Source of the DNA: Alphaproteobacteria bacterium
GTDB lineage: Bacteria > Pseudomonadota > Alphaproteobacteria > UBA828
Assembly (NCBI GenBank): GCA_965221125.1
Contig: CBDCRW010000007.1
Coordinates: forward strand, 672,001-736,000
Length of the DNA: 64,000 nt
Direction of reading: 5' to 3'
Each line of letters starts with the position of its first letter. Positions within the stretch are counted from its first letter, which is position 1. A program made the translations under genes and the position numbers. Below, in pieces: positions 50,320 through 58,983 of this stretch. A model generated the notes under the pieces. It saw only the letters and a program-made list of their open reading frames with translations. It was not told the origin of the DNA and ran no database searches.

Positions 50320-51126
50320 GTGGGCTGCGCCACCAACGAACGCTTCGTGACGATCCGCAGCGGCGGACGAATCTGGGCCGTCGGCGCTATCCACGGCGAA
50401 GCGGAGAGGTTGGCCGCGCTGCACGCCGCCATCGAGGAGCGGTTTCAGTCGGGCGACCGAATCGTCTATCTCGGCAACTACCTTGGCCTCGGCGCGCAGG
50501 TTGCCGCCACCCTCGACGAGCTGGTGGCATTCCGTGGTGCGTTGCTTGCCGTCCCGCACATGAGCGTCTGCGACGTGGCCTACTTGCGGGGCAGCCAGGA
50601 GGAGATGTGGCAGAAACTGTTCCAACTCCACCTCTCCGTCGAGCCGTCGAGCGTGCTGCAATGGATGTTGGACCGGGGCGTGCGGCAGACTCTCGCGGCC
50701 TACGGGTGGGGGCCCGACGAGGCGCACGGGCGGGTCAGCCATGGCTCGCAGGAGATCGCGCGCTGGCTTAGCGAGCTTCGCGCCAGAATGCAGCAGTATC
50801 CGGGGCACCAGGAGCTTCTGGCCAGCGTGCGGCAGGCGGCCTTTACCGACGACGGCGCCCTCCTGTTCGTCAATTCGGGGCTCGATCCCTCGCGCCCCCT
50901 CGATACCCAGCGAGACGCCTTCTGGTGGGGCGGCGATCGGCTCGCTGCGCTGGCCCAGCCCTACGCCGACTACAAGAGGATCATCCGCGGTTTCGATCCC
51001 TCGCAAGGCGGGGTCAACCTGGACGGCTACGTCGCGACGGTCGATGGCGGCGCAGGCTTCGGCGGCACGCTCGCGGCCGCCTGTTTCGATTCGGAAGGCA
51101 AGGCGCTTGACCGGATAGACGTGTGA
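50320..51126 (+). CDS. Calcineurin-like metallophosphoesterase homologue with degenerate metal ligands
   Basis: Motif skeleton VGAIHG / LGNYLG / LRGSQE / FVNSG / IIRGF / VDGG.GFGG.L; start uncertain. Confidence 0.75.
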   Translation: MGCATNERFVTIRSGGRIWAVGAIHGEAERLAALHAAIEERFQSGDRIVYLGNYLGLGAQVAATLDELVAFRGALLAVPHMSVCDVAYLRGSQEEMWQKLFQLHLSVEPSSVLQWMLDRGVRQTLAAYGWGPDEAHGRVSHGSQEIARWLSELRARMQQYPGHQELLASVRQAAFTDDGALLFVNSGLDPSRPLDTQRDAFWWGGDRLAALAQPYADYKRIIRGFDPSQGGVNLDGYVATVDGGAGFGGTLAAACFDSEGKALDRIDV

Positions 51127-51160: not shown

Positions 51161-52237
51161 ATGTCCTCTGGAAGTCCGGCAGCAAACGACCTGAACGCAG
51201 CGATCGGCGAGCGGATGCGCTCAGGCACGGTCTGGGCGCTGCCGGCGCGATGGTACGCCGACCCCGAGATCTACCAGGCCGAGCGCCGAAGCATCTTTTC
51301 GTCCCAGTGGCTCTGGATCGGTCGCGAGGCCGACGTGGACGAGCCGGGCCGATACCTGACCGCCACCCCCGCCGACTACCCGATCTTCGTCCGCCGCGCC
51401 GAGGACGGCGCGCTACACGGCTTCCACAATGTGTGCCGGCACCGGGCCTCGAAACTGCTCACCGAGCCGAGCGGGCACTGCCATGCCATCGAATGCCCGT
51501 ACCACGGCTGGCGCTACCGCGCCGACGGCGCGCTCGACCACGTGCCGCTCTTCGGCGAGGCGCCGGATTTCCCGAAGGGCGCGCTATCGCTCTTCCCCAT
51601 CTCCGTCGGTGTCTGGCGGGGCCTCGTCTTCGTGTGCCTGGAGCCGGAGGCGCCGCCGCTCATCGAGTGGCTCGGCCCCATCGAGGAGGCGGTCGAACGG
51701 ACCGCTCCGGCGCAGGCCGCGTTCGGGCGGAGCTTCGAATTCGTTATCGACTGCAACTGGAAGACCTATGTCGACAATTACCAGGAGGGGTATCACATCC
51801 CGCCGTTGCACCCCGGACTGCACCGCGATCTCGACTGGAAGCGCTACAGGGTCATCAATTTCGAGGGCGGCAGCCTTCACGACGGGCCGGCCAAGGGAGC
51901 CTCGAACCACCCCGGCGCCTTCGGCTGGCGTTTCCCCAATTTCGCGTTCAACTCGTACCCGGATGGGCTTTCGTACATGCGCATGGAGCCGGTCGGCCCG
52001 CGCCGGACACGTCTCGTCTATGACTATTGGAAGCCGGACTCGGTCAGCCAGGCGGACTTCGAGGCGACGTTGGAGTACGGCCTCCAGGTGTCGAAGGAGG
52101 ATCAATGGATCACGCCGATCATTCAGGAGAACTTAGAGGCCGGCGTGTACGAAGCGGGTCCGCTCAGCCCGCTTCACGAGAACGGCGTGCACTACTTTCA
52201 CGAGATGGTGCGGGAGGCCGTCGGCTCCGCAGCGTAA
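51161..52237 (+). CDS. Rieske non-heme iron oxygenase alpha subunit (choline/carnitine monooxygenase-like)
   Basis: CRH..CPYH Rieske site; NWK.YVDNYQEGYHIPPLH and ED..I....Q mononuclear iron site. Confidence 0.9.
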   Translation: MSSGSPAANDLNAAIGERMRSGTVWALPARWYADPEIYQAERRSIFSSQWLWIGREADVDEPGRYLTATPADYPIFVRRAEDGALHGFHNVCRHRASKLLTEPSGHCHAIECPYHGWRYRADGALDHVPLFGEAPDFPKGALSLFPISVGVWRGLVFVCLEPEAPPLIEWLGPIEEAVERTAPAQAAFGRSFEFVIDCNWKTYVDNYQEGYHIPPLHPGLHRDLDWKRYRVINFEGGSLHDGPAKGASNHPGAFGWRFPNFAFNSYPDGLSYMRMEPVGPRRTRLVYDYWKPDSVSQADFEATLEYGLQVSKEDQWITPIIQENLEAGVYEAGPLSPLHENGVHYFHEMVREAVGSAA

Positions 52238-53349
52238 GGCGTCAGGCGCGCTCCATCCGCGTCACCTGGGGCGACGGCGCCACGGCGACCTTTCATCACC
52301 TCTGGCTTAGGGACAATTGCGGTTGCGGACAGTGCCGCCACCCCGACACGCTGGAGCGAATCCTCGACCCGCTCTCCGTTCCGTCCGACCTCGCCCCCGC
52401 GTCGGTCTCGATCACCGAGTCGGGCGGACTCCGGGTCGTTTGGCGGCCCGAAGGTCATGTGAGCGACTACGAGTCGGACTGGCTCAGGGGGCATCGCGGC
52501 GGGGCCCACGATCGTTCGCATTGCGGCCTGGCTCCGGTCATGTGGGGCGCCGAGCTCTCGAAGGCGATGCCGTGTGCTGACTATGGTGCCGTCACCGCGA
52601 GCGACGGTGCCCACTTGCAATGGCTTCGCTTGCTGCGCGATTCAGGTGTCGTCGTCCTGCGCGGCACGCCACGCGAGCCGCTGAGCGTCCTCGCCCTCGC
52701 GGGTCTGATCGGCCCTGCACGAGCGACCAATTTCGGCGAGCATTTCGATGTCGTCTCGAAGCCCGAGCCCAACAGCAACGCCTACACGGCGCTCGGGCTG
52801 CTCTGCCACACGGATCTGCCCAACTGGGAACGGCCGCCCGATTACCAGTTGCTGCATTGCCTCGAGAACGAGGCGGAGGGCGGCGACTCCATTCTGGTGG
52901 ACGGCTTCCGGGCGGCCGAGGAGTTGCGCCGGCGGGCGCCTGCCGCCTACCGGCTGCTGACGCGTTCTCCCATCGACTTCCGCTTCCAGGACGACGAGTC
53001 GGACATTCGCTTCCGCGCCCCGACCATCGCGCTGGACGAGGCCGGCACGGTCACCGAGGTGCGCTTCAATTTCGCTGTGATGGACGCGATCAATGCGCCG
53101 GCGGAGCGCATCGGTCCGATCTGCCGCGCGCTCCGCGCCTTCGCAACGGTGATCCGCGATCCGGCGCTGGAGTGCCGCTATCGCCTCAGTCCGGGCGAGC
53201 TGTTGATTTTCGACAACCGCCGGGTCCTGCACGGCCGCGCCGCGTTCGATCCCTCGACCGGCCGGCGGCATCTGCAGGGCTGCTACGTGGACCGGGATCA
53301 GCTTCTCAGCCGCATCCGCGTTCTGGAGCGATCGACACCGCTTCAGTGA
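52105..53349 (+). CDS. Gamma-butyrobetaine/trimethyllysine dioxygenase-like (TauD family)
   Basis: WLRDNCGCGQC..GH Zn domain; HTD, FDNRRVLHGR and RHLQGCY motifs; start ambiguous (nearest canonical start is ATG 52105, inside the Rieske gene). Confidence 0.88.
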   Translation: MDHADHSGELRGRRVRSGSAQPASRERRALLSRDGAGGRRLRSVRRQARSIRVTWGDGATATFHHLWLRDNCGCGQCRHPDTLERILDPLSVPSDLAPASVSITESGGLRVVWRPEGHVSDYESDWLRGHRGGAHDRSHCGLAPVMWGAELSKAMPCADYGAVTASDGAHLQWLRLLRDSGVVVLRGTPREPLSVLALAGLIGPARATNFGEHFDVVSKPEPNSNAYTALGLLCHTDLPNWERPPDYQLLHCLENEAEGGDSILVDGFRAAEELRRRAPAAYRLLTRSPIDFRFQDDESDIRFRAPTIALDEAGTVTEVRFNFAVMDAINAPAERIGPICRALRAFATVIRDPALECRYRLSPGELLIFDNRRVLHGRAAFDPSTGRRHLQGCYVDRDQLLSRIRVLERSTPLQ

Positions 53350-53370: not shown

Positions 53371-54336
53371 TCAGTTGAACTCGCGCTCAAGGGCCTCGGC
53401 GAGCTCGAAGATATCCACGCAGGCGCCGTGGTGGGCGACGTTGAAGATCGGCGCCTCCGGGTCGGTGTTCACCGCGATGATCGTGTCCACGTGCTTCATC
53501 CCGGCCAGGTGCTGAACCGCGCCCGAGATGCCGAGCGCCAGGTAGAGCGAGCAGTTGCCCGCAATGGTGCCCGACTGGCCGACCTGGTGGGCCTTGGGCA
53601 GCCAGCCCGAATCCGCCACTGGGCGCGAGCAGCCGAGCGTGGCGCCGAGCCGCTCCGCCAGCGCGGCGAACTGGGGCAGATTCTTGTCCTCGCCGAGGGC
53701 GCGGCCGACCGAGAGGATGAACTCCGCCTTGCCGATGTCCACGTCGGCCGGCGGGGCCGGCAGATAGTCGATATGGCGGCCGGCGCCAGCCACGGCCTCG
53801 AATTCGACCGCGAACGGCTCGACGCTCGCGATACCTGCCTCTTCCGGGGCCTTGAACGTCGCGCCCCGCAGCGTCAGCACGATCACGGGTTTTTCCGGGA
53901 AGGCCAGGTCCATGGAGACCTTGCCGCCGTAGCCGCTCCGGGTCGCCACCGGCTCGCCACCCTCCGCCGAAAGCCCGAACACGTCGGACGCGAAGCCTGA
54001 GCCGAGGCGCGCGGCAACCGCCGGACCGAAGGCCATGCCGGCCGCGGTATGGCCGATCAGCACTATCCGCACCTGCCTGTCCTCGGCGAGCGTGCAGACT
54101 GCCTCCTCGTACAAGGCGGGATCGAAATGCGAATCGGGCTGTGCCACCGTCACGATCTGGTCCACGCCCGCGCGATTGGCGGCGTCGGCGAGCGCGTCCG
54201 CCTCTCGCCCGATGACGAGGACGGTCAACGGCCCGCCGATGCCCTTCTTGACCGCAGCGGCAGCGCCGATCATCTCCAGCGTCACGTCGCGCATGGTGCC
54301 GTCGAAATGCTCGGCGACGACGAGGATGCCGGCCAT
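53371..54336 (-). CDS. etfA: Electron transfer flavoprotein alpha subunit
   Basis: ILVVAEH, CSRP, QVGQSG and GISGAVQH.AGM motifs; TGATG coupling to the upstream fusion gene. Confidence 0.96.
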   Translation of the reverse strand: MAGILVVAEHFDGTMRDVTLEMIGAAAAVKKGIGGPLTVLVIGREADALADAANRAGVDQIVTVAQPDSHFDPALYEEAVCTLAEDRQVRIVLIGHTAAGMAFGPAVAARLGSGFASDVFGLSAEGGEPVATRSGYGGKVSMDLAFPEKPVIVLTLRGATFKAPEEAGIASVEPFAVEFEAVAGAGRHIDYLPAPPADVDIGKAEFILSVGRALGEDKNLPQFAALAERLGATLGCSRPVADSGWLPKAHQVGQSGTIAGNCSLYLALGISGAVQHLAGMKHVDTIIAVNTDPEAPIFNVAHHGACVDIFELAEALEREFN

Positions 54337-57300
54337 CACGTCTCTCCCCGCTTGTCTCGAATGATCCCGGCGATGGCCGTGGCGACCGCCGCCGCGTCGC
54401 CCTCGATCATCGCCGCGCGCCCGGTTTTGGGCGGCTCGTACAGCTGGCGCACCACGGCCCCCGCCTGATCGAGGCCCACGCCGGCGCCGTCCACCACGGC
54501 GATGGGCTTCTTTCTGGCCTGCTTGATCATGCGCATGGTGGCGTAGCGCGGCGTGCTGCCGCCGGTCTGCACCGTGAGCAGCGCCGGCGCCGGCAACGAA
54601 AGCTGCTGGCGCATGCCGCCTTCGAGCTCGCGGGTGACGGTCATCGCGTCCCCGCCGTCCCACTCGATTCCGAGAACGACGGCCGCATGCGGCAGGCCGA
54701 GAATGCGCGCCAGCGCCGAGCCCGTGGCGCCGTGGCCCAGATCGGCGGACTGCGCGCCGGTCAGCACCATATCCGGCGACTCCTGCGCAGCGACCCCCGC
54801 GAGCACGCGGGCGATGGTCACCGGGTCGGCGTCGCGCAGGCTCTCGTCCCACACCCGGACTCCCCGGTGAGCACCCTTGGCGAGCGCGCGACGGAGAGTG
54901 TCCTCGGCATCCTCGGGGCCGACGGTGACGGCGACGACCTCGCCAGCGCCGAGCCCTTCCGTCAGCAGCAGCGCTTCCTCCAGCGCCGCCTCGTCCCACT
55001 CGTTCAGCTCGTGCTCGAAATGCTCGTCCGCGATCGTGTTCGCGTCCTCGTCGATGGCGAACTCGGGGTTCAGCTCGCCCACCCGCTTGACCGCGACGAG
55101 CACCCTCGGCCCGTCCTTCTCCGGCACTTCGTAAGGAGGCAGGGTCGCCGCGCTCACCGGCGCCGCGCGCCAGGGACCGGCGGCGGGCGCTGCTTCCGCC
55201 TGCTCGACGGCCGGCTCCGCAGCGTCCACCGCAGGCGCCGGCCGTTGCGAAGCGGCAGCGGCGAGCGTGGGCGCCCGCTCGACAAGTTCGCTCACCACGC
55301 GCTCGGTCACGGCATCGGCGAGCCGGTCGGCCAGCCGGTCCGCCACGGCATCGGCAATGCGCACCGCCGCGGCCTCGGTGATGCGATCGACGAGCGCCGG
55401 CACCTCCTTGAGGTCGATGCTCTTCAGGTCGATCGCCTCGGCCACCAGCTCCGCCAGGTCCTGGACGACGAAGTCGTCCTCGTGGCCGCTGGTCTTGCGG
55501 GCGTCCTCGAACATGGTCATGTCCTTGGGGCAGCAAACGACGAAGGTGTCGAGATTACCGAGAGACGCCGCCTCGTGCATCCTGTTCTCGGCGGGCCGCT
55601 CCTTGCCCACCGGATCGGGCATCCAGATGCGCCCGCCGCCGGCGCCGCAGCAGAACGAGTTGTCGCGGCAGCGCGGCATGTCCACCAGCTCGCAGCCGAT
55701 CAACTCCAGCACCCGGCGGGGCTCGTCGTAATGGCCGTTGAACCTGCCGAGATGGCAGGGGTCGTGGAGCGTCACCCGTAGCCCGAGGGGCTTCACGACG
55801 GTAAGCCGCCCGCTCTCCAGCAATTCCGCGAGGACGCTCGTGTAGTGGCGGATCGGCGCGGTCTCGCCGAAGTCGGGATACTCGTTGCGGATGGTGTTGT
55901 AGCTGTGGGGGTCCGTGGTGACGATCGCGTCGAATTGCTCCGCGGCCGCCATCGCTTCCAGGTTGTGTTCCGCCAGCGATTCGAAGAGGCCTTCCTCGCC
56001 GACCCGGCGCACGTCGTTGCCGGCGGTCCGCTCGCTCTCGTAGAGCAGGCCGAAGTCGAGGCCGGCCGTGCGGAAGAGACGCGCGACCGTGCGCGAAACA
56101 TCCTGGTTGCGGGGATCGTAGGATGCGTAGTCGCCCACGAACCAGAGGTTTTCCGCCGCCTCCGCGCGGACGTCCTTGACCGGGAACTCAAGCGCCGCGG
56201 TCCACCCGCCGCGGCTGCGCGGGCTTTCGCCAAAGCTGTTGCCGCGATTGGCGATCATGTCGAGGGTGTCGCGGAGCTGCTGCTCCATGTCGCCGTCCTC
56301 GACGAGCTGGCGCCGCATCTGCACGATCATCGGCGGATGCTCGATGCCGACCGGGCAGATTTCCATGCAGGCGCCGCAGGAGCGGCAGGACCAGAGCGTC
56401 TCCGCCTCGATCACGTCGCCGATCAGCGATGCGCCGTTCGCCCCCGGCCTGAAGGCGCTCCGCGCGGCGTGGGAGCGCAGGTCGAGGATCAGGTCGCGCG
56501 GGCTGAGCGGCGCACCGCTCGCGGTTGCCGGGCAGGCCTCGTGGCAGCGGCCGCACTTGGTGCAGGCGTCGAGGTTGAGCAGGTCCTTCCACGAGAACTG
56601 CCCGATGCTGCCGAACCCCACGTCGGGCTCGGCGTCCTCCGCGCCGCCGGCGAGGGCCGGCTTGGGCAGGCGGCGGAGGGCCAGGGCGTCGCGCGTGGAA
56701 AGCGAGCCGAGCACGGCGATGATATGCTTCGCCTTGGTCCAGGGGATCGCCGCGATGAACGCCAGCGCCGCGATGCCGTGGATCCACCAGTTGGCCCGGC
56801 GCACGGCGGCGGCGCCCGCTTCGTCCATGCCGAGGCCCAGGAAAATCTCGGCGAGCACCCAGCCGACCGGCGACCACGCCCCCCAGGCCGGCTGATCCAT
56901 GGCGAGCCGCACGCCCTCCTGCAGGAAGCCGGTGACACCGATCAGCAGCAGCGCCCAGAGGAACAGCGCGTCGTCGCGGAGCCAGGCGCGGGCGCGGGGC
57001 CGCTCCTCGGTCTCGCCGCGGTACTCCCGCTTGTAGTCCAGCTTGGCGGGCCGGACCTGCCAGCGCCGCCACATCATGTAGACGCAGCCCACGATCAGCC
57101 CGAGGCCGGCAAGATCGGCGATCAGGCTGAAGACGAGATAGAAGGTGCCGTGCCAGAAGGTGAAGCCGAAGAAAGGCTCCGAAATGTCGTACTCGACCGT
57201 GATGATGCTGGTCGCGGCGAGCAGCAGGAGAAAGCCGTACATGATCGGCGTGTGCGCGTGGCCTGCGGCGCGGTCGCGCCGGTGCACGGTCCGCTGCGAG

Positions 57301-57491
57301 AAGACGTCGAACACCATGCGCCAGAAGCCGCGCCAGGGATGCACCGGGACCGGGCTGCGCCGCGCCCGCGCGTAGCGCCAGACGTGCCAGGCGACGCCGG
57401 CTGCGGCCACCGCCATCGCCGCCCCTGCGACGACGAAGAAGAGCGTGTGACCGAGGGAGGTGATCTCCCAGAAGAGCTCGCGGGTCTCCAC
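54336..57491 (-). CDS. Fusion of a FadF/EMO/DgcB-type membrane Fe-S oxidoreductase and an ETF beta subunit
   Basis: NarI-like transmembrane domain with His residues; CTKCGRCHEACP and CRSCGACMEICP; CCG domains (HDPC, FCCGAGGG); ~100-aa linker; EtfB motifs (VLVAVK, NEWD..ALEEA, G.QS.D, RELEGG, PRYA). Confidence 0.9.
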   Translation of the reverse strand: METRELFWEITSLGHTLFFVVAGAAMAVAAAGVAWHVWRYARARRSPVPVHPWRGFWRMVFDVFSQRTVHRRDRAAGHAHTPIMYGFLLLLAATSIITVEYDISEPFFGFTFWHGTFYLVFSLIADLAGLGLIVGCVYMMWRRWQVRPAKLDYKREYRGETEERPRARAWLRDDALFLWALLLIGVTGFLQEGVRLAMDQPAWGAWSPVGWVLAEIFLGLGMDEAGAAAVRRANWWIHGIAALAFIAAIPWTKAKHIIAVLGSLSTRDALALRRLPKPALAGGAEDAEPDVGFGSIGQFSWKDLLNLDACTKCGRCHEACPATASGAPLSPRDLILDLRSHAARSAFRPGANGASLIGDVIEAETLWSCRSCGACMEICPVGIEHPPMIVQMRRQLVEDGDMEQQLRDTLDMIANRGNSFGESPRSRGGWTAALEFPVKDVRAEAAENLWFVGDYASYDPRNQDVSRTVARLFRTAGLDFGLLYESERTAGNDVRRVGEEGLFESLAEHNLEAMAAAEQFDAIVTTDPHSYNTIRNEYPDFGETAPIRHYTSVLAELLESGRLTVVKPLGLRVTLHDPCHLGRFNGHYDEPRRVLELIGCELVDMPRCRDNSFCCGAGGGRIWMPDPVGKERPAENRMHEAASLGNLDTFVVCCPKDMTMFEDARKTSGHEDDFVVQDLAELVAEAIDLKSIDLKEVPALVDRITEAAAVRIADAVADRLADRLADAVTERVVSELVERAPTLAAAASQRPAPAVDAAEPAVEQAEAAPAAGPWRAAPVSAATLPPYEVPEKDGPRVLVAVKRVGELNPEFAIDEDANTIADEHFEHELNEWDEAALEEALLLTEGLGAGEVVAVTVGPEDAEDTLRRALAKGAHRGVRVWDESLRDADPVTIARVLAGVAAQESPDMVLTGAQSADLGHGATGSALARILGLPHAAVVLGIEWDGGDAMTVTRELEGGMRQQLSLPAPALLTVQTGGSTPRYATMRMIKQARKKPIAVVDGAGVGLDQAGAVVRQLYEPPKTGRAAMIEGDAAAVATAIAGIIRDKRGET

Positions 57492-57522: not shown

Positions 57523-58230
57523 CTAACCGCCGAGGTACACCTTGCGGACGTGCTGGTCGTCGCGAATCCGCTCGGCCTCGCCTTCCAGCGCGACGCGGCC
57601 GGTTTCCAGCACGTAGGCATAGCGCGCGAGCTTGAGCGCGAGCTCCGCGTTCTGCTCGACCAGCACGACGGGCACGCCCCGCGCGTTGATGTCGACGACG
57701 ATCCTGGCGATCTCCTGCACCATCACGGGGGAGAGGCCCAGGGAAGGCTCGTCGAGCAGCAGCAGCTTCGGCCGCGCCATCAGCGCCCGGCCGATCGCCA
57801 GCATCTGCTGCTCGCCGCCGGAGAGCGTCTTGCCGTACTGGGTGCGCCGCTCCTTGAGCCGGGGGAAGCGCTCATAGACGGCTTCCAGGTCCTGCTTGAT
57901 CCCGTCCTTGTCGCGCCTGAGGAACGCGCCCGTGTTCAGGTTCTCGAAGACCGTGAGCTCGGGAAAGACATGCCGGCCCTCGGGCACGTGCGCGATGCCG
58001 CGCTTCACCACTTCGTCAGGCGGCAGCGAGTCGATGCGCGCACCGTCGAACCAGATCTCGCCCTTGCTCGCGCGCACCAGGCCCGAGACGGTACGCAGCG
58101 TCGTGCTCTTGCCGGCGCCGTTTGCGCCGATCAGGGTCACGATGTCGCCCTCGCCGACCTCCATCGAGACCGCGCGCAGCGCCGTCACCTTGTTGTAGTG
58201 GACGGTCAGCGACTTGATCTGGAAGAGCAT
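57523..58230 (-). CDS. livF: LivF-like ABC ATP-binding protein
   Basis: GANGAGKST, VPEGR.VF, LSGGEQQMLA and VEQN motifs. Confidence 0.92.
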   Translation of the reverse strand: MLFQIKSLTVHYNKVTALRAVSMEVGEGDIVTLIGANGAGKSTTLRTVSGLVRASKGEIWFDGARIDSLPPDEVVKRGIAHVPEGRHVFPELTVFENLNTGAFLRRDKDGIKQDLEAVYERFPRLKERRTQYGKTLSGGEQQMLAIGRALMARPKLLLLDEPSLGLSPVMVQEIARIVVDINARGVPVVLVEQNAELALKLARYAYVLETGRVALEGEAERIRDDQHVRKVYLGG

Positions 58231-58983
58231 TCAGGCCGTCCCCAGGTAGGCTTCGATCACGGCTGGGTCGGCGCGGATTTCCTCGGGCGTGCCTTCCGCC
58301 AGCAGTTCGCCGAAGCTCAGCACCGTGATCTGGTCGCACAGTCCCATGACCGCCTGCATGTCGTGCTCGACCAGCAGGATGGTGACGCCCTGGCCGCGCA
58401 CGCGCTCCACCAGCACCATCATCTGCCGCGTCTCTTCAGGGTTCATGCCGGTAAAGGGCTCGTCGAGCAGGATCAGCTTGGGCTCGGCGGCGAGCGCCAC
58501 CGCAATGCCGAGCGCCCGCTGGTGGCCGTGCGGCAGGTTGACCGTCTCGTCGTCCTGGCGATCGCCCAGGCCCATGAACGCGAGTATTTCCTTTGCGCGC
58601 GCTTCCGATTCTCGTTCGGCGCCCCGGCTGGTGCCGAGCAGCGCGCTGAACGGCCCGACGTGGGACTGCATGTGGCAGCCGATCAGGACGTTCTCCAGAA
58701 CGGTGAGCTCCTGGAAGAGCGTGGTGGCCTGAAACGTGCGAACCACGCCCCGCGCCGCGATCCGGCTCGGGCGCAAGCCCGAAATCTTGCGGCCGCCGAA
58801 CACGATGTCGCCGGCGGTCGGCTTGTAGTAGCCGCTGATGACGTTGAAGGTCGTGGTCTTGCCGGCGCCGTTCGGGCCGATCAACCCGTGAATCTGCCCC
58901 TCGTCGACGGTGAACGAGAGGTTATTCACCGCGGCGAGACCGCCGAAATGCCGTGACAGTTCGCGGACTTCGAGCAAGCTCAT
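58231..58983 (-). CDS. livG: LivG-like ABC ATP-binding protein
   Basis: FGGLAAV, GPNGAGKTT, RTFQ, VEHDM and VIEAYLG motifs. Confidence 0.92.
   Translation of the reverse strand: MSLLEVRELSRHFGGLAAVNNLSFTVDEGQIHGLIGPNGAGKTTTFNVISGYYKPTAGDIVFGGRKISGLRPSRIAARGVVRTFQATTLFQELTVLENVLIGCHMQSHVGPFSALLGTSRGAERESEARAKEILAFMGLGDRQDDETVNLPHGHQRALGIAVALAAEPKLILLDEPFTGMNPEETRQMMVLVERVRGQGVTILLVEHDMQAVMGLCDQITVLSFGELLAEGTPEEIRADPAVIEAYLGTA

Follow-up and report, generated by a model that had tools for sequence, protein, structure and literature searches.

We analyzed a stretch of 64,000 nucleotides (here called the window) from contig CBDCRW010000007.1 of an alphaproteobacterium (UBA828) and found a gene that joins a membrane oxidoreductase of the EtfD/DgcB/FadF type to the β subunit (EtfB) of an electron-transferring flavoprotein (ETF). 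The fusion of these two modules is real, and the gene for the α subunit, etfA, follows it directly. We consider it probable that the fusion is a single-chain ETF:quinone oxidoreductase-EtfB protein that, with its cotranslated EtfA, constitutes a membrane-tethered ETF dedicated to trimethylamine dehydrogenase (TMADH).

The open reading frame (ORF) of the fusion (Table 1) runs without a break through 1051 amino acids from a GTG start, as a previous reading of the window from its letters alone (the sequence-only reading) had stated, and its N terminus is conserved among homologs, with E2, T3, and R4 invariant. The architecture constitutes a recurrent family that is neither a singleton nor rare in metagenomes. 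A search among proteins of nearly the same length gave 2852 matches at an E value of ≤1e-3 among 8000 candidates scored, and 121 sequences (the query and the best 120 matches) were analyzed further. A length of 980 to 1090 amino acids was found for 114 of these, query included, and the full-length form is therefore present in 113 further clusters among the best 120 matches. In species genomes, 23 related loci were recovered (60 to 94% identity); together with the window, the frame was open across the junction in 24 of 24. The database names of these proteins are generic ([quoted passage not shown] or [quoted passage not shown]), and one carrier, Roseovarius sp. 2305UL8-3 (RefSeq WP_371225827.1), has been cultured. 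The window DNA itself was followed in sequencing runs. Run X1 may be the source sample and would then lend no independent support; its contigs tile positions 53719-57204, including 54990-55649, with zero differences. Run X5, an independent sponge metagenome, showed no indel in the pieces 54799-55072 and 55398-55607. A stop or frameshift in the linker, the flaw of which the sequence-only reading had warned, was found in none of the contigs across the linker (X1 and the X5 pieces). An assembly artifact or frameshift is ruled out by the 24 open loci, the X1 tiling, and the absence of indels in X5. The runs with near-identical DNA were all sponge metagenomes or coded organism samples. The RNA libraries X19 and X20 held contigs of relatives (~88 to 93% likeness) on parts of both halves of the gene; none of the pieces listed bridged 55103-55300, and such libraries can hold DNA.

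Some entries deviated from the family in form or label. A candidate triple fusion with EtfA (P0034, 1378 amino acids) was rejected: it matches the fusion up to residue 828 and then follows a shadow frame into etfA, and a frameshift in the assembly or gene call explains this imitation of a triple fusion. In the window, a 721-amino-acid shadow ORF (53371-55536, minus strand) starts within the fusion gene and extends in a different frame into etfA. The fusion match of genome G017 comprised one TGA plus a 1345-amino-acid open frame. Two loci titled Chloroflexota (L025) and Gammaproteobacteria (L030) carry fusions that are 91% and 77% identical, with neighbors as in alphaproteobacterial loci; these titles are probably binning or labeling errors and not signs of gene transfer.

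Pfam placed a Fer4 dicluster at residues 304-383, one CCG stretch at 573-655, and an ETF domain at 820-1001 (E 1.3e-37) of the fusion. NCBIfam models matched below their thresholds only (HdrD-like TfrB, TmcB, DsrK, and GlpC; EtfB models; weakly, QmoC). The domain Fer4_ETF_QO (PF05187) was not found in the fusion by the Pfam scan, and the protein is thus not a classical ETF:quinone oxidoreductase (ETF-QO). An AlphaFold2 (AF2) model built on 42 homologs (mean pLDDT 77.8, pTM 0.71) comprised five long helices within residues 12-252, an Fe-S/CCG core, the linker, and a confident EtfB fold. The five predicted transmembrane (TM) helices cover residues 12-41, 74-98, 116-145, 165-199, and 224-252, and each of the 114 full-length homologs keeps three histidines, H80, H238, and H256. 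The sequence-only reading had called this domain NarI-like with multiple TM helices. The helices and the invariant histidines bear out one half of that description, but a Pfam NarI match was not found at E ≤ 0.01; moreover, NarI has four histidines for two hemes, whereas the membrane part of the fusion has three invariant histidines. The QmoC model matched the domain weakly (E 3e-6, 27 bits against a cutoff of 300). The membrane domain is EtfD/HdrE-like rather than a member of the NarI family.

Table 1. Features of the window in and around the fusion gene
Feature	Coordinates	Strand	Basis
Fusion gene, 1051 amino acids (EtfD/DgcB-type membrane Fe-S/heme module, linker, EtfB)	54336..57491	-	ORF, Pfam, PDB, AF2, Foldseek
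Membrane domain, residues 1-265, five predicted TM helices	56697..57491	-	AF2 model helices, invariant His
Two cubane [4Fe-4S] motifs, residues ~300-400	56292..56594	-	Pfam Fer4 dicluster 304-383, invariant Cys
Degenerate first CCG region, residues ~445-535, without cluster-D1 ligands	55887..56159	-	Alignment to EtfD
Second CCG domain, residues 573-660, putative noncubane [4Fe-4S] D2 site	55512..55775	-	Pfam CCG 573-655
Linker, residues ~690-795 (106 amino acids)	55107..55421	-	Homolog alignment, AF2 model
EtfB module, residues 796-1051, Methylophilus/TMADH type	54339..55106	-	1o94_C match, Foldseek
etfA, 321 amino acids, translationally coupled to the fusion	53371..54336	-	Pfam ETF and ETF_alpha; TGATG
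livF-like ABC ATPase, directly upstream of the fusion	57523-58230	-	Pfam, NCBIfam
livG-like ABC ATPase	58231-58983	-	Pfam, NCBIfam
Rieske oxygenase, quaternary-amine group (CntA/GbcA/Stc2-like)	51161..52237	+	Pfam Rieske and Ring_hydroxyl_A; convergent on ETF genes
GBBH/TmpA-like Fe(II)/2-oxoglutarate dioxygenase	52027..53349	+	Pfam TauD and GBBH-like_N; convergent on ETF genes

The best solved relative of the N-terminal 780 residues is EtfD of Mycobacterium smegmatis (9ojn_A; phmmer E 7.6e-71 over residues 285-774). Foldseek also ranked 9ojn first (E 2.3e-32; TM-score 0.75, target normalized) over 772 columns, compared to 742 modeled residues, and therefore the membrane part matches EtfD too. 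To match ligands, positions were counted along the phmmer alignment to 9ojn_A, and conservation was taken from the 114 full-length homologs. According to passages of the EtfD structure paper (PMC13083937), heme b is ligated by His78 and His241, cubane D4 by Cys301/304/307/422, cubane D3 by Cys311/412/415/418, the linear [3Fe-4S] cluster D1 by Cys503/538/581/584, and the noncubane cluster D2 by Cys637/672/673/709/712 and His583; electrons pass from the clusters through the b heme to menaquinone, with an activity assay reported. The eight cubane cysteines of the fusion (C310/313/316/320 and C369/372/375/379, that is, CxxCxxCxxxC twice) align with the D3/D4 ligands and are all invariant (114/114). 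H80 lies in predicted TM helix 2 and H238 in helix 5, with numbers near those of EtfD His78/His241. Matched to EtfD by position and invariance rather than by a printed alignment, the two would be the axial ligands of one b heme.

The four D1 ligands of EtfD are replaced in the fusion. C503 and C581 correspond to aspartates found in 114 of 114 homologs (D454 and D527), C538 to T, N, or S at position 489, and C584 to S or T at position 530 (T489 and S530 in the query), and a cysteine occurs at any of the four positions in 0 of 114 homologs. Of the six D2 ligands, five are kept and invariant (C579, C614, C615, C654, and H529, the last being the counterpart of EtfD His583). The sixth position (EtfD C712) reads D657 throughout the 114, and an extra cysteine stands at 653 in 104 of them. 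The D1 cysteines are missing from DgcB and FadF as well, which probably accept ETF electrons at D2 (PMC13083937); the fusion, likewise without D1 cysteines, is therefore grouped with that D1-less subgroup. The two [4Fe-4S] motifs, the first CCG domain without cysteines, and the nearly intact second one, all claimed in the sequence-only reading, are present, and the homolog alignment agrees. As an observation in its own right, aspartates invariant in 114 of 114 occupy three EtfD cluster-cysteine positions (454 and 527 for D1 and 657 for D2; codons at ~56128-56130, 55909-55911, and 55519-55521 of the window). These replacements may have a binding role or give the D2 site its shape.

The linker begins with a conserved amphipathic helix, continues as a variable Ala/Pro-rich disordered stretch, and ends in a conserved motif that leads into EtfB. 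In the AF2 model, the helix covers residues 697-746 (pLDDT ~50) and the disordered part residues 747-795 (pLDDT ~35). Across the 114 homologs, the linker is 54 to 138 amino acids long (median 104.5) and contains 24% Ala and 15% Pro; within its last ~25 residues, W774, P778, Y787, P790, K792, G794, and R796 are conserved. The W..P..Y..P.K.G motif is also found at the N terminus of stand-alone EtfBs of the same clade (G300, P0141, and P0177), of which the G300 protein has 300 amino acids and is 54% identical over fusion residues 773-1050. Since stand-alone EtfBs of the clade carry it, the motif is a trait of this EtfB subfamily and not filler; the EtfB of Methylophilus W3A1 is without it. Our guess is that the motif could be a docking element, because AlphaFold3 predicts that ETF is bound by the disordered tail of EtfD (PMC13083937).

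The EtfB module matches the β subunit of the W3A1 ETF (1o94_C) end to end (residues 796-1049 on chain residues 2-263; E 4.6e-58), and structural comparison with Foldseek gave 42% identity, a TM-score of 0.86, and a root mean square deviation of 2.7 Å. Housekeeping ETF β subunits gave E values of 7e-33 (Paracoccus) and 3.5e-32 (human), and the module remained far under the cutoffs of the NCBIfam FixA and bifurcating ETF models. EtfA behaved in the same manner (1o94_D E 9.1e-85, human 1e-38, Paracoccus 6e-29). Both subunits thus match the W3A1 ETF far better than housekeeping ETFs, and the resemblance to Methylophilus that the sequence-only reading had named is real for β and α alike. In the partner-recognition loop (P981-M988), P981, R982, and A984-M988 are invariant in alignment A1, and Met986 of the fusion is aligned with Leu194 of W3A1 ETF β, which we take to be the hydrophobic anchor of partner recognition. 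In the 1o94 complex, domain III, which is mostly β subunit, anchors ETF on TMADH, while the FAD domain is mobile (PMC8097209). etfA follows the fusion in every related locus that reaches past the stop, with an overlapping stop/start or a gap of a few bases; in the window, the TGA of the fusion and the ATG of etfA share one A (TGATG). This coupling had been noted in the sequence-only reading, and its description of a helix of ~100 residues followed by an Ala/Pro linker and a full EtfB likewise agrees with the model and the alignments. In an EtfB tree, the fused modules formed one clade within the stand-alone W3A1-like radiation. The tree held 38 of the 114 fused sequences (every third one), its branch supports were uninspected, and the intended housekeeping-EtfB outgroup was an EtfA-like ETF-domain ORF; therefore, we draw from it no firm conclusion as to whether the fusion arose once or in which direction fission went.

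The link to TMADH comes from synteny and co-occurrence. The denominator for synteny was the 18 related loci with enough upstream DNA, and in four of these (L030, L033, L034, and L040) a TMADH-family gene of the same cluster lies just upstream of the fusion on the same strand. The gene of L033 is a TMADH ortholog over its full length (1djn_A, E 3.7e-249, residues 5-722 on 2-719). In L032, the TMADH-family gene is divergent and 1.2 kb from the fusion, and TMADH is located just upstream also in the sampled genomes G028, G103, G017, and G081. In total, TMADH lies just upstream of the fusion in eight other genomes or loci; in these relatives, which are more distant from the window, the upstream gene encodes a three-domain Oxidored_FMN enzyme. 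The surroundings of these pairs recur: an aldehyde dehydrogenase and GcvT lie further upstream in L033 and L034, and a gene resembling dimethylglycine dehydrogenase (DMGDH; DAO and GCV_T domains) directly follows etfA in L033 and L035. TMADH, the fusion, GcvT, a Liv-type binding protein, two permeases, and one ATPase gene are found together in L030 and inside a 23-kb locus in L032. The window genome has its TMADH ortholog on contig 4 (L043 10127-12388, minus strand; 1djn_A E 3e-287), with an identity of 88.6% to the gene beside the fusion in L030 and of 81% to its counterpart in L040. Its neighbors are GcvT, another Rieske oxygenase, and a divergent Liv-type binding protein with two permeases and no ATPase (G000:C4:270700-274100; L043 12728-16110).

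To sample the class, an even set of 401 genomes was used, with the window genome (G000) included and also two unpublished genomes (G240 and G040), on which none of our claims depends. Fusion-type matches were found in 7 of the 401 (G000, G048, G028, G017, and G103, and, cut by contig ends, G222 and G081), and TMADH orthologs (E ≤ 1e-200) also in 7 (G000, G048, G017, G028, G081, G103, and G300). Six genomes from five families had both, one had the fusion only, one had TMADH only, and 393 had neither. In G300, a TMADH-family gene is followed by a stand-alone EtfB of the clade and EtfA, that is, by the split form. By synteny and co-occurrence, a TMADH ortholog is supported as the electron donor; the sequence-only reading had spoken of a methylamine dehydrogenase, which the eight adjacent cases and the 401-genome sample make specific. 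The TMADH of the window genome keeps Cys30, Tyr60, Ser74, Trp105, Trp264, Trp355, and the four cluster cysteines of the Methylophilus enzyme. We take Cys30 to be the FMN link and Tyr60, Ser74, Trp105, Trp264, and Trp355 to form the substrate bowl; Tyr60, Ser74, and Trp105 differ in dimethylamine dehydrogenase. These residues would favor trimethylamine as the substrate.

From these parts, the following route can be proposed. Cytoplasmic TMADH would oxidize trimethylamine or a close N-methyl amine, with the formaldehyde passing to GcvT and aldehyde dehydrogenase, and the 4Fe-4S cluster of TMADH would hand single electrons to the FAD of ETF. The base of ETF β (domain III), the anchor on TMADH in the solved complex, would be covalently tied to the membrane module by the 54- to 138-amino-acid tether of helix and Ala/Pro stretch. 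The mobile FAD domain, mainly EtfA, would swing to deliver the electron to the noncubane cluster D2, with D1 absent as in DgcB/FadF. From D2, electrons would reach the quinone pool by way of the two cubane clusters and the one b heme at H80/H238. The swinging-arm, quinone-routing model of the sequence-only reading is supported in the fusion, the type of ETF, and the TMADH donor; its swinging-arm geometry and the reduction of quinone, together with the type of quinone, the cofactor content, the direction of electron flow, the function of the tether, and the substrate, are matters that we infer.

A more elaborate, tentative version, to which we give somewhat less than even credence, is a membrane-bound "trimethylamine:quinone oxidoreductase" metabolon. 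Here the tether would hold the ETF anchor, TMADH would dock via the invariant recognition loop, and one FAD domain would swing between the TMADH 4Fe-4S cluster and D2; no diffusible carrier would therefore be needed. The W..P..Y..P.K.G motif would be the docking peptide, as the covalent counterpart of the disordered EtfD tail. If this version were true, the family would represent a natural preassembled ETF:EtfD complex and could show which cluster takes the electron. Docking was predicted with three chains, namely, the Fe-S/CCG core (residues 300-690) as the partner, EtfB (773-1051), and EtfA, from our own alignments; these and the use of three chains differ from the conditions under which the tool was calibrated. 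The score was 0.41 (runs 0.41, 0.41, and 0.38) compared to 0.14 for the best control. At least 85% of contacts were common to the runs, and the partner had a pLDDT of at least 85. Of 80 solved complexes, 58 reached the mark applied, as did 2 of 110 mismatched pairs; at scores of ≤0.60, it was reached by 7 of the 80 and by both mismatched pairs. The docking thus supports the mechanism weakly and adds little to it.

Several observations weigh against a tethered ETF dedicated to TMADH. All evidence on this family comes from sequence comparison and predicted structures. No dehydrogenase gene adjoins the fusion in the window, and the 10 loci that belong to the same clade look alike and have no TMADH gene next to it either; here the link to TMADH is made through orthology to fusion-adjacent genes elsewhere and through complementary transporter parts. 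Both class searches scored two candidates per genome, and related genomes are not independent. One D2 ligand is Asp in place of Cys (657). The TMADH of the window genome has E and R at the positions of Methylophilus V344 and Y442, which are presumably on the electron path to ETF; these may reflect co-adaptation with the tethered ETF.

Further points favor the alternative that the tethered ETF serves amine and N-methyl dehydrogenases in general, as a hub with TMADH as one client among many. The window genome encodes eight Oxidored_FMN paralogs (ORFs of 660 to 840 amino acids), and together with the DMGDH-like gene that directly follows etfA in L033 and L035 these suggest that the ETF may serve several donors. 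G222 (100% complete, 120 contigs) holds the fusion without a TMADH at E ≤ 1e-200, its best match being 45% identical; L021 and L037 have unrelated upstream genes (MocA-type oxidoreductase, amidase, and glutathione S-transferase); and the convergent neighbors in the window probably act on trimethylammonium compounds. Nevertheless, fusion and TMADH co-occur tightly (6 of 7 each way in the class sample), the recurrent gene just upstream is a TMADH ortholog, and a separate EtfBA and a classical ETF-QO are available to other clients. We regard a general hub as unlikely. Much less credible is a mostly free EtfB, translated from within the gene at a GTG near residue 797 (~55103), which would leave the fusion with little functional meaning. 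A GTG at V797 with a purine-rich stretch upstream can be read in the window DNA, a few database proteins of 247 to 263 amino acids (76 to 91% identity) begin there (P0127, P0128, P0129, and P0136), and stand-alone EtfBs of the clade are known (G300, P0141, and P0177). However, among the 114 homologs, residue 797 is most often Ile (79) and otherwise mainly Val (27) or Leu (7), with no conserved Met at 786-803, so that the internal start raised in the sequence-only reading is not conserved. The starts of the short proteins fall at four separate points, as would be expected of gene calls on interrupted or frameshifted ORFs; the frame stays open in 24 of 24 loci although the linker varies from 54 to 138 amino acids; and the coupled start of etfA lies at the stop of the long ORF. 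Electrons might also run in reverse, from quinol through the membrane module to ETF, and drive a reductive reaction, and HdrD-like and CCG modules do run in both directions in other systems. We hold this to be highly improbable, since synteny points to oxidative amine dehydrogenases, accompanied by GcvT for formaldehyde and by aldehyde dehydrogenase, as the partners, and since EtfD, the closest solved relative, is reported to pass electrons from ETF to quinone (PMC13083937). A tethered ETF dedicated to TMADH is thus the reading that we prefer.

The remainder of the window genome places the fusion among other electron routes. Contig 4 encodes a second, separate EtfBA pair, and contig 6 a classical ETF-QO (C6:872640-872942, PF05187 domain); thus, the fusion provides a dedicated branch alongside these systems rather than a substitute required by their loss. 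The sequence-only reading had electrons reach quinone "without the classical ETF-QO", which stands insofar as the route is separate and parallel, but the genome does encode a classical ETF-QO. Upstream of the fusion in the window are the livF- and livG-like ATP-binding cassette (ABC) ATPase genes, with no permease or binding protein nearby, and metZ also precedes the fusion. The permeases and binding protein beside the contig-4 TMADH exactly complement these ATPases; one importer unit is thus divided over two sites in this clade, and its substrate may be trimethylamine or a related amine.

Two genes converge on the ETF genes from the other side. For the Rieske oxygenase, CntA (6y8j) was the only full-length solved relative (E 8.5e-33, residues 23-350); 3n0q matched at E 2e-34, the GbcA model gave 137 bits against a cutoff of 670, and no reductase partner was found near it in the window. 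The dioxygenase scored just under the cutoffs of TIGR02409 (359 bits, cutoff 414.75) and TmpA NF049936 (347 bits, cutoff 400). Its true start is probably later than the first TTG of the ORF, and in L020 and L023 the dioxygenase gene directly follows etfA. The Rieske oxygenase, the dioxygenase, and TMADH together suggest, by sequence similarity, a catabolism of trimethylammonium compounds as a source of trimethylamine or related compounds, which we offer as a lead and not as a finding. The idea that the ETF supplies the adjacent Rieske oxygenase was dropped; it had rested on the high potential of the W3A1 ETF. A 268-amino-acid ORF (50320-51126, plus strand; cluster c4) lies beside the Rieske gene in the window and in 10 of the 23 related loci, and it had no Pfam or NCBIfam match.

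No paper describing or characterizing this fusion was found in the open full-text literature, with subscription journals and supplements outside the scope, and the architecture, which the sequence-only reading did not know to be characterized, has turned out to be recurrent. The words "fused" and "fusion" do not occur in the text of the EtfD structure paper (PMC13083937), whose Figure EV8 or supplement might list fused homologs. That 2026 paper states that an ETF:EtfD complex was not captured and that the entry cluster is unknown (PMC13083937). On both counts the family is of use. As gene-fusion ("Rosetta stone") evidence, it marks D1-less EtfD/DgcB-type proteins as direct ETF partners and fixes which end of ETF faces them, and a natural single-chain ETF:EtfD is an obvious cryo-electron microscopy sample. 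It is likely the missing link from the long-studied TMADH-ETF pair to the respiratory chain, at least in these alphaproteobacteria; no description of such a link was found in the full-text literature. Carriers could thus have a dedicated route by which to respire trimethylamine, and the cultured Roseovarius carrier opens the family to experiments.

Among known systems, EtfD (M. smegmatis MSMEG_0690, PDB 9ojn; M. tuberculosis Rv0338c) is most like the fusion, with five TM helices, a two-His b heme, two cubanes, and two CCG domains. It also accepts ETF electrons and reduces quinone, the role proposed for the fusion, and it has a long nonglobular C-terminal extension with an AlphaFold3-predicted ETF contact (PMC13083937). 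EtfD differs in having the linear [3Fe-4S] cluster D1, all four ligands of which are replaced in the fusion, and in the last D2 ligand, which is Asp in the fusion. Its tail is disordered with a free end, whereas that of the fusion leads into a complete EtfB. The partners of EtfD are acyl-CoA dehydrogenases and menaquinone; for the fusion, the donor would be TMADH, and ubiquinone is presumed because the host is an alphaproteobacterium. DgcB of Pseudomonas aeruginosa and FadF of Bacillus subtilis share with the fusion the D1-less form of the EtfD family and are thought to take ETF electrons at D2, but they are unfused, with C-terminal tails of <3 kDa (PMC13083937). Unfused DgcB-like proteins in the class sample were 33 to 42% identical to the fusion over residues ~25-690. 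Work by Wargo in 2008 is said to have placed DgcB beside DgcA, an amine demethylase of the Old Yellow Enzyme/TMADH family, and dedicated etf genes. Separately, locus L045 (G210:C1:762000-781900) encodes an unfused DgcB-like protein of 659 amino acids, 42% identical to the N-terminal part of the fusion, near a 264-amino-acid ETF-domain gene and two GMC oxidoreductases, that is, other clients of the same kind of acceptor.

For both ETF parts, the ETF of Methylophilus methylotrophus W3A1 (PDB 1o94-1o97 and 3clr-3clu) is the best match among solved structures. It has the same kind of partner, as relatives of the fusion have TMADH adjacent, and its recognition loop is kept in the fusion, with Met replacing Leu194. 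Its β subunit, in contrast, is a free protein of 264 amino acids without W..P..Y..P.K.G and is 42% identical to the fusion module. The classical ETF-QO (PF05187) has the same job as that proposed here, the transfer of electrons from ETF semiquinone to quinone, but its fold and cofactors are unrelated (FAD and one 4Fe-4S cluster in a monotopic protein). EtfD/DgcB-type oxidoreductases, the TMADH-type ETF, and TMADH were thus all known before; the novelty lies in an oxidoreductase that is covalently joined to EtfB and linked to TMADH.

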